Shown here: positions 37,384-55,639 of the stretch, piece after piece | How the letters are laid out: every line of letters starts with the position of its first letter | Position numbering within the stretch: position 1 is the first letter of the stretch | Source of the DNA: Rheinheimera texasensis | GTDB taxonomy: Bacteria > Pseudomonadota > Gammaproteobacteria > Enterobacterales > Alteromonadaceae | DNA: 64,000 nucleotides | Assembly: GCF_964031785.1 (NCBI RefSeq) | Contig: NZ_CAXIRE010000014.1 | Coordinates: 59,927-123,926 of the forward strand | Direction of reading: 5' to 3' | Translations under genes and position numbers: made by a program | The notes under the pieces: generated by a model | The model's database searches: none | Seen by the model: the letters and a program-made list of their open reading frames with translations, nothing else | What the model was told of the DNA's origin: nothing

Positions 37384-38412
37384 TCAGTGCTGGCAGGGCG
37401 CGGTTGATTCGCGTACCAGCAACTCCGGAATAAATACCGGCTGCTGTTCCACAGCGCTGCGGGCATTGCCGGGTCTGGTGTGGCGGAACAACAGCTCAGC
37501 GGCCTGTGCAGCGATAGTGCTGTTCGGCTGGTTCGCTGTGGTCAGTGGTGGCCAGGTCTGCCGCGAGAACGGACTGTTTTCAAAGCCGACAATGGACAGC
37601 TGCTGTGGGATCTCAACGTGACTGAGCCTGGCGCTAAATAAAGCCCCCGCGGCAATTTCGTCGTTACAGGCGAAGATGGCGGTGGGTTTATGCGCCATCG
37701 CCAGCAGATGTTTGGCGCCTTTGACACCGGATTCAAACGAATAACTGCCCGGCACCACAAATTTTGGATTGGCCTGAATGCCGCGTTTGGTCAGGGCTGC
37801 CTGAAAACCGGCCAGCCGCTCGCCGCTCGAACTGTGTTCTTCATCACCACATAAAAACGCGATGTCGGTGTGACCCAGTTCCAGCAGGTGATTGGTGATT
37901 TTAAAGGCGGCCGTGAAGTCGTCAATCAACACACAGTTGGTCAGCTTCGGCGACGGCGTCGAGCCGGAAATGATCCGGACGAAGTCGACATCAATCCGTT
38001 CCAGCGCTTCAGCAATTTCCGGCATTTCGGAAAACGGCGGGGTCAGTACTAAACCGGCAAGGCGTGAATGCTGCACGACGTCTATCACTTCCTGCACTAT
38101 GTTGGCGGACTTGGCGTTGGTCGGGTGGATCAGCAGTTCATAACCATGCTTGCGGCAGGTATCCAATAAACCCTTTTGCATATCAATCACATAATAAGCA
38201 TTCGGGTTGTCGTAGATATAACCGATGGTGTAAGAGCGGGTACTGGCAAGATTACGGGCGGCGGCATTGGGCTGATAATTCAGCTGGGCGATGGCTGCCG
38301 TGACTTTATCCAGCGTGGCCTTTTTCACCGAAGGTTCGTTGTTCATCACCCGCGACACCGTCTTGATCGACACTCCGGCCAGCTCAGCGACGTCATTAAT
38401 GGTTACTTTCAT
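37384..38412 (-). CDS. nagR: LacI-family regulator of GlcNAc utilisation (Shewanella-type NagR)
   Basis: TINDVAELAGVSIKTVSRV HTH, YQPNAAARNLAS, IFACNDEIAAG; adjacent nag cluster carries repeated LacI-type operators. Confidence 0.85.
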   Translation of the reverse strand: MKVTINDVAELAGVSIKTVSRVMNNEPSVKKATLDKVTAAIAQLNYQPNAAARNLASTRSYTIGYIYDNPNAYYVIDMQKGLLDTCRKHGYELLIHPTNAKSANIVQEVIDVVQHSRLAGLVLTPPFSEMPEIAEALERIDVDFVRIISGSTPSPKLTNCVLIDDFTAAFKITNHLLELGHTDIAFLCGDEEHSSSGERLAGFQAALTKRGIQANPKFVVPGSYSFESGVKGAKHLLAMAHKPTAIFACNDEIAAGALFSARLSHVEIPQQLSIVGFENSPFSRQTWPPLTTANQPNSTIAAQAAELLFRHTRPGNARSAVEQQPVFIPELLVRESTAPCQH

Positions 38413-38759
38413 AGCGCTTCCAGGCAAATAAGCCGCTGTCAGCAAGCCTGTCCGGTATTCCGAAAACAGGCTGGAAATTTCCCCTGTAAAGCAGGGAATG
38501 ACAGCGGTAGTCATTTTGTAAGAATTATTGAACTAAGGGATACAACGTTTTGGCCAAAACAGCAATTGTTTATTTATCAAAAAATGAGCAGTAGCGTGAC
38601 TGATATTTTTCTTAATTAAAAAAGATGAATAAATACATATAGTTATAGTGTGATTGATCTGTGATAGCCTGAAAATACAGCTGTCCTGGTCTAAAATCAG
38701 CCATAACTGAGGCCTTGTCTTAAGCGACAAAATCAGTCTAAAAAATCAGCGGATGGGGT

Positions 38760-38812
38760 TTGCAAAGTAAAAATAATTTGTGTATGTTGAGATTTAATGA
38801 CAGCGTTGTCAT
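38760..38812 (+). promoter_or_regulatory. Nag TBDR promoter with NagR operator
   Basis: TTGCAA-17 nt-TATGTT, then ATGACAGCGTTGTCAT (38797-38812) at about +1. Confidence 0.85.
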
Positions 38813-38868
38813 TGCAGGACAAATAAAAATTCATCGCACACGAAGAAAAACAGGAATGGGAGAAGCTT

Positions 38869-43944: not shown

Positions 43945-45456
43945 ATGATGAAATCTATCTGTATTGTTGGCGGTGGTTCTTCCGGCTGGATGACCGCTAT
44001 TTATCTGAACCGCTATTTTAATCAGCAACAAGCACGTGTGCAGGTGCGGGTCGTTGAAAGCGAAGACATCGGCATCATTGGTGTTGGCGAAGCAACAGTA
44101 CACAGCATCCGTTATTTCTTTGCGGCTATGGGGCTGGACGAAGCTGAGTTGCTGGAAGCGACCAATGCCACTTTTAAAACCGGCATTATGTTCAGAAACT
44201 GGATGAAACCGGTCGACGGCCAGATGCATCAGTATTTCCATCCGTTTGACCATCTGAAACCGCCGCTGGATTTGGATATCTCCACCAGCTGGCTGCTGGA
44301 CCGGCGCTTTGAACTGGAGCGTTTTGACCAGGGCGCCAGTCTGTCGTCGCACCTGGTTGCCAGCGGTCATAGCCCCAAAACGCCGCAGTCGCCGCCGTAT
44401 CAGGGCGTGGTGCCTTATGGTTACCACTTAGATGCCGTCAAAATGGCGCGTTTCCTGCGCAAAAAAGCTATCGAAGCCGGTGTGCTGCACAGTGTCGCGA
44501 CTGTGACAGATGTAACGGTAGCCGATGGCAATATCCGCGCGGTGCAAACCGATCAGGGCGAATTCAGCGCCGATGTGTTTATTGACTGTACCGGTTTCCG
44601 TGGGCTGTTAATGGAAGCGTTAAAAGCCGATAACTGGCAGTCCTTTACTGATGCCCTGCCTTGTAACAAAGCGGTGGCAATTCAGCGCGAACTGCCGGGC
44701 GAGCCGAAGCCGTATACCACAGCCACCGCGTTAACCAACGGCTGGGTCTGGGAGATTGACCTCGTTGACCGCCAGGGCACAGGTTATGTCTATGACGGCG
44801 AACGCCTGAGCCGCGAACAGGCCGAGCAGGAGCTGCGGGACTATTTGGGCCCGGCTGCGGCAGTGCTCAAATGCACCCATTTGGATATGAAAGTGGGCTG
44901 TCGCAAAGAATTCTGGGTCGGTAACTGCATCGCGGTTGGCCTGGCTGGCGGTTTTATCGAACCGCTGGAATCGACCGGCCTGCATCTGATTAACCTTGGC
45001 GTGCGGCTGTTATCGACACATCTGGCCGGCAGCGAGCTGACGCAACCGGTGCGGGACTCCTACAATCGGCTGATGAATGGTTTTTACACTGATTTAAAAC
45101 AGTTTATTGTGCTGCATTATTGCCTGACCGACCGCGATGACTCTGCCTTTTGGCGCGACGCAGCGGCAAAAGCCGCTTATTGCCCGGGCTTAGAAACGCA
45201 GCTGGCGGCCTGGCGTTATAAAGTCTGTGAGTACATGGATCTAGCCGGCACTTTCTCGACAACCTTCACCGATGAAAACTATCGGTTTATTTTGTACGGC
45301 ATGGGCCATTATCCGCAGTTACAAGCGACGGCGACTGGGCGACAGTTTGATGAGCTGTTTAGCAAAGTCGCCCAGCAAGCCAAGCATGCGGTTTTCAGCA
45401 CTTTGCCGTTACAAGCCTGGATCCGCCAGCTGCATAGCAGCAAAAACAGCGCCTGA
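43945..45456 (+). CDS. Tryptophan halogenase-family flavoprotein 2
   Basis: GGGSSGW, IGVGEAT, TFKT Lys, FIDCTGF, WVWEID, GFIEPLESTG. Confidence 0.9.
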   Translation: MMKSICIVGGGSSGWMTAIYLNRYFNQQQARVQVRVVESEDIGIIGVGEATVHSIRYFFAAMGLDEAELLEATNATFKTGIMFRNWMKPVDGQMHQYFHPFDHLKPPLDLDISTSWLLDRRFELERFDQGASLSSHLVASGHSPKTPQSPPYQGVVPYGYHLDAVKMARFLRKKAIEAGVLHSVATVTDVTVADGNIRAVQTDQGEFSADVFIDCTGFRGLLMEALKADNWQSFTDALPCNKAVAIQRELPGEPKPYTTATALTNGWVWEIDLVDRQGTGYVYDGERLSREQAEQELRDYLGPAAAVLKCTHLDMKVGCRKEFWVGNCIAVGLAGGFIEPLESTGLHLINLGVRLLSTHLAGSELTQPVRDSYNRLMNGFYTDLKQFIVLHYCLTDRDDSAFWRDAAAKAAYCPGLETQLAAWRYKVCEYMDLAGTFSTTFTDENYRFILYGMGHYPQLQATATGRQFDELFSKVAQQAKHAVFSTLPLQAWIRQLHSSKNSA

Positions 45457-45480: not shown

Positions 45481-45512
45481 AACGCCGGCCTTTTCAGGCC
45501 GGCGTTGTTATT
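45481..45512 (+). terminator. Terminator after the halogenase-like genes
   Basis: AACGCCGGCCT-TTTC-AGGCCGGCGTT then GTTATTTT. Confidence 0.75.
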
Positions 45513-45571
45513 TTGGCGGCAGAGAGCGTGGCAACCATAAAGCTGAAAAAATGTCTGAAAATTCGGCAAAT

Positions 45572-45605
45572 AACTAATGACAGCGTTGTCATTAGTTGGT
45601 AGGAT
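45572..45605 (+). promoter_or_regulatory. NagR operator overlapping a sigma70 promoter
   Basis: AACTAATGACA-GCGT-TGTCATTAGTT; ATGACA-17 nt-TAGGAT with TGn extended -10. Confidence 0.8.
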
Positions 45606-45611
45606 GTTTTT

Positions 45612-45852
45612 AACCTGAACACAAAGTCAGTGGTACTTGTGTGCAGACTAGCCGGAATAAGCGGACGCGTTGCGACCTTATGCCGGTGCACGATAGCGGC
45701 CCGACTGGTAGCTGCTGTTGTCTCCCTTGTCGCAGTCGGTAACATTGGTAGTTGGTGTTACAGGCTGACCAGTCACACGGATGTTGTGTTTTATTTGCCA
45801 ATCCTTATCCAAGGGTATTTGCAGGATACTGTGTTCAGTGTCCTGCTTTTTT
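45612..45852 (+). ncRNA. Candidate NagR-repressed sRNA (~240 nt)
   Basis: Promoter and operator at 5' end, 5' hairpin ACACAA(A)GT/ACTTGTGT, intrinsic terminator GCAGGATACTG-TGTT-CAGTGTCCTGC-T6 (45821-45852), no convincing ORF. Confidence 0.55.
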
Positions 45853-45944
45853 ATTGCCGCAAAGGTTTCCTGCTGCGTAAACTCTCCATGACTGCAGATA
45901 CGTGAACCTGTCAATTTCCGAAATAGATCAACAAGAGCTGTCTG

Positions 45945-46955
45945 ATGAACAACACAATTCGCTGGGGCATTTTAGGTTGTGGCAACGTCACTGAAGTTAA
46001 AAGTGGTCCGGCTTATCAGCAAACGCCGGGTTTTGTTGTCCAGGCCGTGATGCGCCGCGATGCCGGCAAAGCCGCCGATTATGCCAGTCGCCATCAGGTA
46101 CCGGTGTGGTACAGCGATGCTGATACGCTCATTAATGACCCGGATATCGATGCGGTGTATATCGCCACGCCGCCGGACAGCCATCTGTTTTATGCGCTGA
46201 AAGTCGCAGCCGCCGGCAAAATCTGTTGTGTTGAAAAGCCGATGGCGCTTGATGCAGAAGAGTGCGCACAAATGAATGCGGCTTTTGCTGCGGCGGGTGT
46301 GCCGCTGTTTGTCGCTTATTACCGGCGCAGTCTGCCGCGTTTTTTACAAGTCAAACAATGGCTGGATGCCGGCCTGATTGGCACTGTGCGACATGTACAG
46401 TGGAATTTCAGCCGCAGCCCGAATCCGCTCGATTTATCCGGCGCCGCGAACTGGCGCACCGATCCGGCTCAGGCTGGTGGTGGTTATTTTGTTGATCTGG
46501 CCAGTCACGGCCTGGATCTATTGATGTATTTACTCGGTGACATGCAACAGGTGCAAGGGCAGGCACTGAATCAGCAAGGCTTGTACCAGGCCGAAGACGC
46601 GGTCACAGCGCAGTGGTTGTTTGCACCGGATGCCAGGGGGCATGTCGCGACCGGTAGCGGTTTCTGGCATTTTGGTACGGACGGCCGGCGCGATGCGGTG
46701 GAAATCATCGGCAGTTTGGGCCACATCCGTTTTTCGGTATTTCAGGAAGACCCATTGCAGTTAACTGTGAACGGTGTGACAGAATCGGTGTTTATCGAGC
46801 ATCCGGCGCATATTCAGCACTATCATGTCGCCAATATTGCCGCGCATTTACGCGGTGAACTACAACATCCGTCAACCGGTGACAGCGCTTTACGCGCGAC
46901 CGCGGTGATGGAGCAGATCCTGCAGAAAAAATCAGGCCGGAATGAACCGGCCTGA
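45945..46955 (+). CDS. Gfo/Idh/MocA-family oxidoreductase
   Basis: WGILGCG.V, DAVYIATPPDSH, VEKPMA, GGGYFVDLASH. Confidence 0.9.
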   Translation: MNNTIRWGILGCGNVTEVKSGPAYQQTPGFVVQAVMRRDAGKAADYASRHQVPVWYSDADTLINDPDIDAVYIATPPDSHLFYALKVAAAGKICCVEKPMALDAEECAQMNAAFAAAGVPLFVAYYRRSLPRFLQVKQWLDAGLIGTVRHVQWNFSRSPNPLDLSGAANWRTDPAQAGGGYFVDLASHGLDLLMYLLGDMQQVQGQALNQQGLYQAEDAVTAQWLFAPDARGHVATGSGFWHFGTDGRRDAVEIIGSLGHIRFSVFQEDPLQLTVNGVTESVFIEHPAHIQHYHVANIAAHLRGELQHPSTGDSALRATAVMEQILQKKSGRNEPA

Positions 46956-49592: not shown

Positions 49593-49800
49593 TATTAATC
49601 CTGTTGCAAAAGATGGTACATTAGTACCACAGTTCCTTTTTAAAGCGATGCTGCTCAGTCGTTACAACAGGATGACTGGTCTAACTCGCTGATTTTTATT
49701 TTGTTTTACTGGAAGCAGCAGCTGCTGCGTGAATTTCCAGTCTGATTTTTAATCAGGGGTCTTGTTATTTGTCAAAATTATTATATGCTGAACTGAAAAA

Positions 49801-53157: not shown

Positions 53158-54486
53158 GTGAATATGGATATGGCAATGGTACGACCGGCACCCAAAAATA
53201 CCGTACTGCCGATGGTGATCATCGGCACGCTGTTTTTTGTGTTTGGTTTTGTCACCTGGCTGAACGGGTCTTTGATCCCGTTTTTAAAGCTGGTGTGTCA
53301 CCTGACAGAATCGCAGGCGATGTGGGTCACTTTCGCTTTTTATATCGCGTACGTGGTGATGGCATTGCCGATGTCCTGGGTACTGAACCGCATTGGCTAT
53401 AAAAATGGCATGGTGGCGGGGCTTGGTATTATGGCGGCCGGCGCTGTGTTGTTTATCCCGGCGGCACAAACCACTTTGTATAGCCTGTTTCTGGTCGCGT
53501 TATTTACACTCGGCACCGGCCTGACAATTCTGCAAACCGCGTCCAATCCCTATATCGTTTGTATCGGCCCGCGTGAAACCGCGGCGATGCGTATCAGTAT
53601 TATGGGCCTGGTGAATAAAGGCGCCGGTGTTGTGGTGCCGCTGATTTTTACCGCCTGGATTTTGACCGGTATGGACCAGTTCACCCCGGAAGTGCTGGCT
53701 GCACTGAGTGAAGAAGAAAAAGCCAGCCGTATTGCTGAACTTTCCAATCGTCTGGTCACGCCATACATCTACATGACAGTGGCGCTGCTGGCGTTAATGG
53801 CTTTTGTGAAGTTTTCGCCACTGCCGGAGCCTGAGCTGGAACAGCCGGCAGAGCAAGGTGTGGCGCCGGAACACCGCACTTCAGTGCTGCAATTCCCGCA
53901 GCTGATGCTGGGTGTCGCTGCGTTGTTTTTTTACGTCGGCGTTGAAGTCATTGCCGGTGATACTATTGGTCTTTATGGCCAGCATCTGAATGTGTCGCAT
54001 TGGGGCGCGCTGACTTCTTATACCATGGTGTTTATGGTGCTGGGTTATCTGGTTGGTGTCAGCTGTATTCCGAAATACCTGTCGCAACCGCGTGCACTGC
54101 AAGGCTCTGCCGTGTTTGGCATCCTGTTCACCTTGGGTGTGATGTTTGGTTCGGCCGAAAGCCATCAGTTATCGGCGTTGTTATTTGGCTGGGCCGGCAT
54201 TCCGACTGTGCCTGATACTGTGTTGTTCCTGGCGATGCTGGGTTTTGCCAATGCCTTAGTCTGGCCTGCGGTGTGGCCACTGGCGCTGGAAGGGTTGGGC
54301 AAATTTACCGCCACCGCTTCAGCTTTATTGATTATGGGCATCGCCGGCGGTGCTGTGTTACCTAAGGTGTATGGCTATCTGTCGACCGCGTCCGGTGATG
54401 CGCAAGGTGCTTACTGGATGATGATCCCGTGTTACGCCTTTATCCTTTATTACGCTTTCAGCGGCTATAAAAAACGCCAGTGGTAA
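53158..54486 (+). CDS. nagP: FucP/GluP-family MFS sugar permease (GlcNAc)
   Basis: LFFVFGFVTWLN, LQTASNPY, YVGVEVIAG, ANALVWPA.WPLA, MGIAGGA; within nag operon. Confidence 0.85.
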   Translation: MNMDMAMVRPAPKNTVLPMVIIGTLFFVFGFVTWLNGSLIPFLKLVCHLTESQAMWVTFAFYIAYVVMALPMSWVLNRIGYKNGMVAGLGIMAAGAVLFIPAAQTTLYSLFLVALFTLGTGLTILQTASNPYIVCIGPRETAAMRISIMGLVNKGAGVVVPLIFTAWILTGMDQFTPEVLAALSEEEKASRIAELSNRLVTPYIYMTVALLALMAFVKFSPLPEPELEQPAEQGVAPEHRTSVLQFPQLMLGVAALFFYVGVEVIAGDTIGLYGQHLNVSHWGALTSYTMVFMVLGYLVGVSCIPKYLSQPRALQGSAVFGILFTLGVMFGSAESHQLSALLFGWAGIPTVPDTVLFLAMLGFANALVWPAVWPLALEGLGKFTATASALLIMGIAGGAVLPKVYGYLSTASGDAQGAYWMMIPCYAFILYYAFSGYKKRQW

Positions 54487-54505
54487 GCCATTTTTTAAAA
54501 AGTGA

Positions 54506-54532
54506 AACAGGGCTGACTTTGTCAGCCCTGTT
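54506..54532 (+). terminator. Stem-loop between nagP and nagX
   Basis: AACAGGGCTGAC-TTT-GTCAGCCCTGTT, short T tail. Confidence 0.55.
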
Positions 54533-54553
54533 GTCTTTCGGAGCACCATAACA

Positions 54554-55639
54554 ATGCAAAATTCCGCACGTTTTTATGCACTGGACGTGCTGCGTGGCCT
54601 GGCCATCGCGCTGATGATTCTGGTCAATACACCGGGCAGCTGGTCGCATGTGTATAGCCCGTTGCTGCATGCCAGCTGGGATGGTTTTACCTTTGCCGAC
54701 ATCGTGTTTCCCGGCTTTTTATTTGTTGTCGGCGCCGCCATGGCGTTTTCGCTGAAAGACAGCCGGCTCAGTTCCGCAGTGGTGGCGAAAATTGCCAAAC
54801 GCGCGTTGCTGATGTTTGGCTGCGGTTTGTTGCTGAATTTTCTCAGCCATCCGGATCTGGCAACTTTACGGATCCCTGGAGTGTTGCAGCGCATCGCGCT
54901 CTGTTACGCGCTGGCGGCATTGTTGGTGCTGAGTCTGCCCAAACGTGGGCTTTGGGCGGCAGTGTTGTTGCTACTCGGCGGTTATTTCGCTTTGCTGCAA
55001 TTATCGCCGGCGCCGTTTTCGCTGGAACAAAATATTGTTCGCACGCTGGATCTGGCAGTCTTCGGCACTGCCCATGTTTATCAGGGCTTTGGGGTGGCGT
55101 TTGATCCGGAAGGATTACTCAGCACTTTGCCGGCCACCGTCAACGTGTTGCTTGGTTATTTAGTCGCGACCGGTCTTAAAGGCAAAGCGCCGCTGCAGGC
55201 GGTGCGGGATTTAGCGGCTTTTGGTGCTGTTTTAGTGCTGCTGGCTTTGGCCGGACATTGGCTGTGGCCGGTGAATAAAGCTTTGTGGTCCGGCACTTAT
55301 GTCGCCTTAAGTAGTGGTTTATTGCTGTGGCTGCTGGCTGCGCTGGTATATCTGGTGGATATCCGCAAGGCAACCAAACTGACCGAGCCGCTTAGGATCT
55401 ACGGCACCAATCCGCTGTTTATTTATATGCTGAGCTGGATGTTTTCGGTGGCAACTGGCCGATGGCTGAGCTGGAGCACTGCAGACGGCACTCAGTCAGT
55501 CGCCGGCTTGCTTTATACGGCATTGTCGTCGCTGCTGCCGCTGCAGGCGGCTTCCTTAGTGTTTGCGCTGCTGCACGTCGTGTTGTTCTGGGCGTTGTCG
55601 CTGTGGCTGTACCGCCGGCAAATTTTTATCAAGCTGTGA
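54554..55639 (+). CDS. nagX: HGSNAT-like membrane acyltransferase NagX
   Basis: LDVLRGLAIALMILVNTPG, H..WDG.T.AD.VFP.F.F.VG, RIPGVLQRIA, FDPEGLLSTLPA, NKALWS.TY. Confidence 0.88.
   Translation: MQNSARFYALDVLRGLAIALMILVNTPGSWSHVYSPLLHASWDGFTFADIVFPGFLFVVGAAMAFSLKDSRLSSAVVAKIAKRALLMFGCGLLLNFLSHPDLATLRIPGVLQRIALCYALAALLVLSLPKRGLWAAVLLLLGGYFALLQLSPAPFSLEQNIVRTLDLAVFGTAHVYQGFGVAFDPEGLLSTLPATVNVLLGYLVATGLKGKAPLQAVRDLAAFGAVLVLLALAGHWLWPVNKALWSGTYVALSSGLLLWLLAALVYLVDIRKATKLTEPLRIYGTNPLFIYMLSWMFSVATGRWLSWSTADGTQSVAGLLYTALSSLLPLQAASLVFALLHVVLFWALSLWLYRRQIFIKL

Follow-up and report, generated by a model that had tools for sequence, protein, structure and literature searches.

The interval at positions 45,572 to 45,852 of the window (the whole 64,000-nt stretch of Rheinheimera texasensis DNA analysed here) lies inside a chitin/N-acetylglucosamine (GlcNAc) cluster. 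The cluster carries the gene of a LacI-family regulator (37384-38514) as well as nagK-like, SIS (nagB-II) and nagA genes, and genes for a GH20 hexosaminidase, an MFS transporter and an HGSNAT-like acyltransferase. Its layout is that of the Shewanella-type NagR regulon, with which it is also alike in gene content, namely nagK, nagB-II, nagA, hex and a TonB-dependent receptor (PMC3223726). The MFS transporter and the HGSNAT-like acyltransferase-family membrane protein are encoded downstream of nagA (window 53158-55639), and this pair resembles nagP/nagX of the Shewanella GlcNAc pathway. The interval follows an operon of TonB-dependent receptor (TBDR), SapC and two halogenase genes, of which the last coding sequence (Hal2) ends at 45456 and the terminator sets the 5' limit of the RNA unit. 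A preliminary description of this DNA had placed past that terminator an orphan NagR operator, overlapping the -35 of an extended -10 promoter, and a transcript that ends about 240 nt later in an intrinsic terminator, 92 nt ahead of the next coding sequence. The features found in the interval and at its borders, given below, agree with this outline.

45481-45515, + strand: terminator of the upstream TBDR-SapC-halogenase-halogenase operon (stem 45481-45506 with 11 pairs, 8 of them G-C, and a T-rich tail)
45572-45597, no strand: predicted operator of NagR (LacI family), a perfect 11+11 bp palindrome, AACTAATGACA-GCGT-TGTCATTAGTT
45577-45605, + strand: predicted sigma-70-type promoter, ATGACA (45577-45582)-N17-TAGGAT (45600-45605), with an extended -10 TG at 45597-45598
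45612-45852, + strand: predicted non-coding RNA of ~240 nt, candidate for a GlcNAc/NagR-controlled sRNA (fold, conservation, covariation)
45615-45721, + strand: clade-specific 5' domain with three stem-loops, SL1 (45615-45646), SL2 (45651-45687) and SL3 (45690-45721)
45721-45727, + strand: motif R1, UCUCCCU, single-stranded and anti-Shine-Dalgarno-like, candidate seed
45733-45767, + strand: stem-loop SL4, whose loop is motif R2, UUGGUAGUUGGU (45745-45756), candidate seed
45779-45815, + strand: motif R3, a near-invariant block of 37 nt, GGAUGUUGUGUUUUAUUUGCCAAUCCUUAUCCAAGGG, which includes a U-rich stretch and a small hairpin, SL5 (45802-45815)
45821-45852, + strand: Rho-independent terminator (11-bp stem 45821-45846 with 6 G-C pairs, 4-nt loop, T6 at 45847-45852)
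45945-46955, + strand: GFO/IDH/MocA-family oxidoreductase gene (MocA below), the usual but not obligatory downstream neighbour, outside the RNA unit

The MocA coding sequence starts 92 nt past the RNA terminator, and the U run of this terminator is 6-9 nt long in all copies of the RNA. The RNA interval folds with -87.3 kcal/mol (z = -2.9), and only one of 200 shuffles was as good. Of the two segments that had been quoted from it, CUGCUGUUGUCUCCCUUGU lies at about 45712-45730 and GAUGUUGUGUUUUAUU at about 45780-45795.

The operator had been described as the most extended of the three NagR palindromes in the window, and this holds, with arms of 11+11 bp at 45572-45597 compared with arms of only 6-7 bp at 38796 and 49800. 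Its 18-bp core, AATGACAGCGTTGTCATT (45576-45593), is shared with these two sites, as had been pointed out for a core of 16 bp: the copy at 38796, upstream of the TBDR operon, is exact, and the one at 49800, in the gap between hex and nagK, has one mismatch. Three core sites in the window stand against 0.35 expected, and none of 100 shuffles reached three. Genome-wide, ~10 intergenic NagR-like sites were found, and the site at 45572 is among the three perfect matches. NagR-like intergenic palindromes beyond the window lie at G000 C16:52459, C16:93044, C17:30069, C19:85161, C19:230649, C19:262518, C11:738 and C21:897053. This set suggests a predicted regulon of about ten operators, which would include those of two large proteins, of about 900-1070 aa, that are secreted or located in the outer membrane.

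The predicted promoter of the RNA uses the left half-site of the operator as its -35, which puts the predicted transcription start near 45612, and a scan of the intergenic region gave no promoter-like match besides ATGACA-N17-TAGGAT. For Shewanella, NagR bound to such operators was reported to repress the genes next to them 5- to 50-fold, and GlcNAc to release it (PMC3223726). The NagR regulon of Shewanella and other Alteromonadales is like the present one in its palindromic operator, which has a TGACA-N4/6-TGTCA core and overlaps the promoter, and in having the gene of the LacI-family repressor within the cluster; it differs in that the described targets are all protein-coding operons, whereas the Rheinheimera operator is predicted to drive a non-coding RNA (PMC3223726). 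The locus adds a conserved, predicted RNA output to the NagR regulon.

An operator core of the NagR type lies upstream of every copy of the RNA (32 Rheinheimera representatives and 8 genomes of a sister genus in the same family), and for these copies we scored pairs of -35 and -10 elements on both sides of the operator. In 21 of the 32 Rheinheimera representatives, the window included, the ATGACA half-site serves as -35 with a TAnnAT exactly 17 nt downstream. The downstream -10 hexamer has decayed in the remaining 11 and in all eight sister-genus copies, and a good promoter is found immediately upstream instead, either of the form TTGATT-16/17-TAATAT or TTGCA/TTGAAC...TATAGT, in which case the operator covers the start site. 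The loci compared in this respect with window 45540-45610 are L013, L015, L016, L018-L020, L025, L026, L028-L030 and L102-L116; in the upstream arrangement, the palindrome would be transcribed as the 5' hairpin of the RNA. By these predicted elements, the promoter has switched sides of a fixed operator between clades, and the overlap of the operator with the core promoter, the geometry expected for repression, is constant. Since the promoter has turned over and the overlap was always kept, selection appears to maintain the overlap of operator and promoter and not any single promoter. A promoter that moves across a fixed operator with their overlap preserved is a natural example of the turnover of regulatory architecture. 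The promoter of the TBDR operon (window 38759-38813) resembles TTTGCA-17-TATGTT and is followed, directly after its -10, by the NagR operator, and thus has the same operator-at-start-site geometry as the RNA gene in the other clades.

A BLAST comparison with relatives recovered the interval from 31 of the 37 Rheinheimera genomes, counting that of the window, and identity in the 3' half of the RNA stays at 77-88% even where that of the flanking proteins has dropped to about 60%. A covariance model was built from the 3' 122 positions of the RNA and used in a survey of 59 genera of the family and 110 of the order. Exactly one copy was identified in 38 of 43 Rheinheimera genomes and one in each of the eight sampled genomes of the sister genus. 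Convincing matches were absent from the remaining 57 genera sampled in the family and from 107 additional ones in the order; an order-level match in G128 (E about 0.008, 37 bits) was not credible. The unit of operator, RNA of 160-240 nt and terminator is single-copy, and in 46 genomes the RNA has the same orientation to its operator and terminator. As it is conserved as a whole in two genera, the unit is far beyond chance.

Within the RNA, conservation is uneven. The 5' domain (45615-45721) is unconserved outside the clade of the window, and the 3' two-thirds are conserved. Motif R1 is kept in most Rheinheimera copies and reads CUCCCU in the sister genus, in which the R2 loop is identical and the terminator, though in the same place, is of unrelated sequence. 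The order of the two motifs is swapped in L055/L117, where R2 is upstream of R1; the motifs therefore behave as separable modules, as would be expected of independent seeds. In addition, some genomes lack the RNA. It was lost together with the operator in four Rheinheimera genomes, G032, G065, G031 and G030 (L239, L240, L241 and L244), which keep SapC-MocA-GH20-nagK with unrelated sequence in the SapC-MocA spacer and no recognisable NagR site at MocA. A fifth genome of the genus, G013, is devoid of both the RNA and the GH20 gene. The RNA is therefore dispensable, given that four species keep the cluster without it and G013 lacks it along with GH20. As minor observations on these assemblies, the orthologue of the GH20 hexosaminidase in L241 (G031:C1:641129-643639) has one in-frame TAG and is a pseudogene or carries a sequencing error, and in L005/L053 (G022) the genes for halogenase and SapC, which lie some 170-3300 nt ahead of the operator, are found in several frame-shifted pieces, which in this MAG are probably an artefact of assembly or polishing and not real decay.

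Selection at the level of the RNA was assessed in an alignment of 29 species, with column shuffles (500) and partners slid by 1-3 columns as controls. Double changes occurred in 17 of the 26 scored pairs. In the SL4 stem, both sides have changed in 11 of 12 pairs while the loop UUGGUAGUUGGU is nearly invariant, and in the terminator stem the same is seen for six of the nine pairs scored. Overall, 90.5% of the cells were paired compared with 73.9% in the shuffles, none of which reached the observed value (0/500), and 32-50% in the slid controls. For the clade-specific domain, RNAalifold on seven close relatives gave compensatory changes in all three 5' stems, SL1 to SL3. Compensatory double substitutions of this kind are a signature of RNA-level selection. 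Coding potential was considered as well, as a 91-codon ORF with a GTG start (45630-45905) and several shorter ones overlap the interval; these traverse the terminator and are unconserved. One-base indels fall within the near-invariant R3 in six species (L006, L007, L023, L024, L010 and L027), so no reading frame is conserved and coding is ruled out. The ORFs of 33-91 codons over the interval were thus rejected, their frames being broken by indels in relatives, in line with the earlier remark that the interval has no good ORF.

Given that MocA follows the RNA in the window, the interval could be a transcription-attenuating 5' leader of the MocA-family gene, or give rise to an sRNA released from such a leader. 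NagR-controlled transcripts would then mostly stop at 45852, with a regulated fraction reading through into 45945-46955. In most Rheinheimera genomes MocA is indeed co-oriented and lies 45-390 nt past the terminator, a promoter search of 45853-45944 gave no separate consensus promoter, and MocA, although it belongs to a NagR-controlled cluster, lacks a NagR operator of its own. However, in all eight genomes of the sister genus there is no co-oriented downstream gene, but the 3' end of a convergent GH20 gene within about 45 nt of the terminator. With a convergent gene abutting the terminator, the RNA cannot be a 5' leader there. Also within Rheinheimera, the RNA is kept without MocA in the lineages L005/L053, L023/L040, L024/L036 and L055, about 1.1 kb are inserted between the two in L014 and L027, and the genomes without the RNA keep MocA behind an unrelated spacer. 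Each of the two, RNA unit and MocA, can thus occur without the other, which argues against a dedicated leader or attenuator; moreover, the RNA has a strong terminator, and the alignment folds gave no sign of a conserved anti-terminator alternative. We thus regard the leader as unlikely, and the attenuated leader that the preliminary description had kept as its fallback is disfavoured, with MocA missing or displaced in some lineages, retained elsewhere without the RNA, and replaced by a convergent GH20 gene in the sister genus. Some terminator read-through into MocA is possible in the species of the window.

The interval 45572-45852 is in our view probably a free-standing gene for a non-coding RNA of ~240 nt, which would be derepressed by GlcNAc and act in trans as an Hfq-assisted sRNA. 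That the RNA is independently transcribed, non-coding and under the control of NagR is highly likely; for its action as a trans base-pairing sRNA, the arrangement of its motifs makes us lean towards this role. We infer its transcription, its control by NagR and GlcNAc, its dependence on Hfq and its action in trans from the sequence and its comparison among relatives. Judging from the geometry of the site, the LacI-family repressor of the GlcNAc/chitin regulon would shut off a promoter built into its own operator and, by analogy to NagR of Shewanella (PMC3223726), GlcNAc or the breakdown products of chitin would switch this promoter on. The transcript is predicted to end at the strong intrinsic terminator and to consist of a variable, structured 5' domain and the conserved 3' two-thirds. 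The invariant U-rich block and small hairpin right before the terminator have the layout of an Hfq-binding 3' module, and with UCUCCCU and the loop motif UUGGUAGUUGGU as putative seeds, the RNA may, in the presence of amino sugar, tune how well mRNAs from other loci are translated or how stable they are. Genes for Hfq and CsrA are present in the genome. The proposal of an independent non-coding RNA gene had been made in the preliminary description, which named Rfam, conservation and covariation as checks; these, as well as the analyses of reading frame and operator, all came out in its favour.

Some properties of the RNA speak against its reading as an sRNA. The invariant block of 37 nt exceeds the usual length of an Hfq module and may have another binding partner. 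Furthermore, most of the conserved seeds in enterobacterial sRNAs are at the 5' end, and in the Rheinheimera RNA the 5' third is the least conserved part. A bolder version of the sRNA reading, which we deem improbable, would make the RNA a hub for the chitin/GlcNAc signal unlike ChiX, TfoR or GlmY/Z, with interchangeable seed modules and a 3' block that docks a dedicated protein or ligand, reprogramming uptake across the outer membrane (TonB-dependent receptors, DUF1302-type proteins) upon the appearance of amino sugars. If this is true, no earlier sRNA is known that is coupled in such a direct way to a sugar repressor of the LacI type.

It is less probable still that the RNA binds or sequesters a protein, in which case the 3' block or a GGA hairpin, ACACGGAUGUUGUG, would titrate or recruit CsrA, ProQ or another protein when GlcNAc is present. 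The 37 invariant nucleotides (45779-45815) exceed the needs of a terminator-proximal Hfq site, the genome has a csrA gene, neither the two-genome screen nor the regions of the NagR regulon yielded an outstanding mRNA target (see below), and CACACGGAUGUUGUG may fold into a short hairpin whose loop contains GGA, by which it resembles the SELEX site of CsrA. However, there are only 3-4 GGA triplets per RNA, about what chance gives for 220 nt, and only one of them is conserved and even this one is lost in L024 and L030, whereas sponges of the CsrB type have many repeated GGA hairpins. With GGA counts at chance level, a CsrB/RsmZ-type sponge for CsrA is unlikely. In addition, R1 and R2 look like classical seeds, one of which is presented in the loop of a covarying hairpin. 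Finally, that there is no functional RNA, but constraint on the DNA (extra regulator sites, a bidirectional terminator) or a small protein gene, is very improbable: the RNA is a prediction and is overlapped by the 91-codon GTG ORF at 45630-45905 and by shorter ones, but the stems change in a compensatory way, indels break the frame in R3, the orientation is constant in 46 genomes and the ORFs are unconserved.

As for known RNAs, none of the families of Rfam 15 has a gathering-level match in the whole window, and only noise at E < 10 was found around the locus, in agreement with the earlier statement that the RNA is unlike GcvB, Spot 42, RyhB and CsrB. The best sub-threshold match, frnS, reaches 22.5 bits compared with the required 60 and is found on the other strand, where it spans the operator and the upstream terminator; the others (rnk leader, a microRNA and EBER1) are noise on flanking features. 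Our literature search found no description of a Rheinheimera sRNA, of a NagR-controlled sRNA or of an RNA at 45612-45852. The covariance model could seed an Rfam family.

Turnover of chitin and GlcNAc by aquatic Gammaproteobacteria is a large flux of carbon and nitrogen, and its post-transcriptional control is, to our knowledge, known only in enterobacteria (ChiX, GlmY/Z) and vibrios (TfoR). ChiX (MicM/SroB) of E. coli and Salmonella is an sRNA of the Hfq type that is linked to chitosugars and silences an outer-membrane uptake channel with a pyrimidine-rich anti-Shine-Dalgarno seed (review PMC4098024). The tie to chitosugars and the anti-Shine-Dalgarno seed (compare UCUCCCU in Rheinheimera) are common to both RNAs. 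ChiX differs in that it is about 80 nt long, constitutive and controlled by an mRNA decoy and not by a repressor, and it has no similarity to the Rheinheimera RNA in sequence or in Rfam. The logic is also the opposite one, as ChiX is active without chitosugar whereas the Rheinheimera RNA is predicted to be made in its presence. In Vibrio cholerae, the sRNA TfoR is induced by a chitin-derived signal and links the sensing of chitin to a post-transcriptional output (PMC3903286). TfoR, an RNA of about 100 nt, depends on the membrane regulators TfoS/ChiS for its activation and itself activates the translation of tfoX, unlike the Rheinheimera RNA with its predicted control by a LacI-type repressor; the analogy to TfoR was rejected, as no TfoX_N domain is found in the Rheinheimera genome. 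The nearest functional analogue by signal is GibS of Bacteroides thetaiotaomicron, which is highly expressed on GlcNAc and regulates metabolic mRNAs by base pairing (PMC7366714). It belongs to another phylum without Hfq, is unrelated in sequence and structure, and is induced through a regulator other than NagR. GlmY/GlmZ and Spot 42 are enterobacterial sRNAs that integrate the status of amino sugars and carbon sources (PMC4098024). Of these, GlmY/GlmZ sense the depletion of GlcN6P via RapZ and Spot 42 is repressed by CRP, and the Rheinheimera RNA has no Rfam match to either. Thus, none among ChiX, TfoR, GibS and GlmY/GlmZ is similar in sequence or structure, and none is known to be under a LacI-type repressor; the Rheinheimera RNA is a new family of a familiar kind, restricted to two genera. 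With one operator, one RNA and three candidate functional motifs, the locus is a compact and testable model.

Candidate targets of the RNA were searched for by several approaches. Within the nag cluster, no duplex exceeded 10-13 contiguous pairs and none involved the conserved motifs, and the translation-initiation regions of the NagR regulon are not enriched for complementarity to the RNA. The scores of a genome scan with RNAduplex were dominated by long interior loops, and a listing of 10-mer complements was at chance level. The case of glmS was rejected as well, with one imperfect duplex 41-73 nt upstream, inside the preceding ORF, and no comparative support. In the two-genome screen, the genome of the window was compared with 2.4 Mb of a second Rheinheimera, G019, by way of 1668 reciprocal best matches; for the three motifs, chance alone would give rank products as good as the best ones 0.2-0.4 times, and no target in this screen beats chance. 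Two weak leads were obtained. One, from a scan for contiguous pairing, is the gene of a TonB-dependent receptor (G000 C15:222353-225218) that has sites for both R1 and R3. Its Shine-Dalgarno region, CCAGGGAGA, pairs with R1 and is conserved in orthologues; the receptor itself is found in only about 14 of 41 genomes, some of them with a divergent RNA or none. The other is the top R1 pair of the two-genome screen, a gene for a DUF1302 outer-membrane protein (G000 C21:222334-224536, - strand) and its orthologue in G019. The translation-initiation region of this gene, CCUGCAGGGACAGGGGGGAGA, is conserved, unusually rich in G and, in both species, complementary to the part of the RNA around UCUCCCU.
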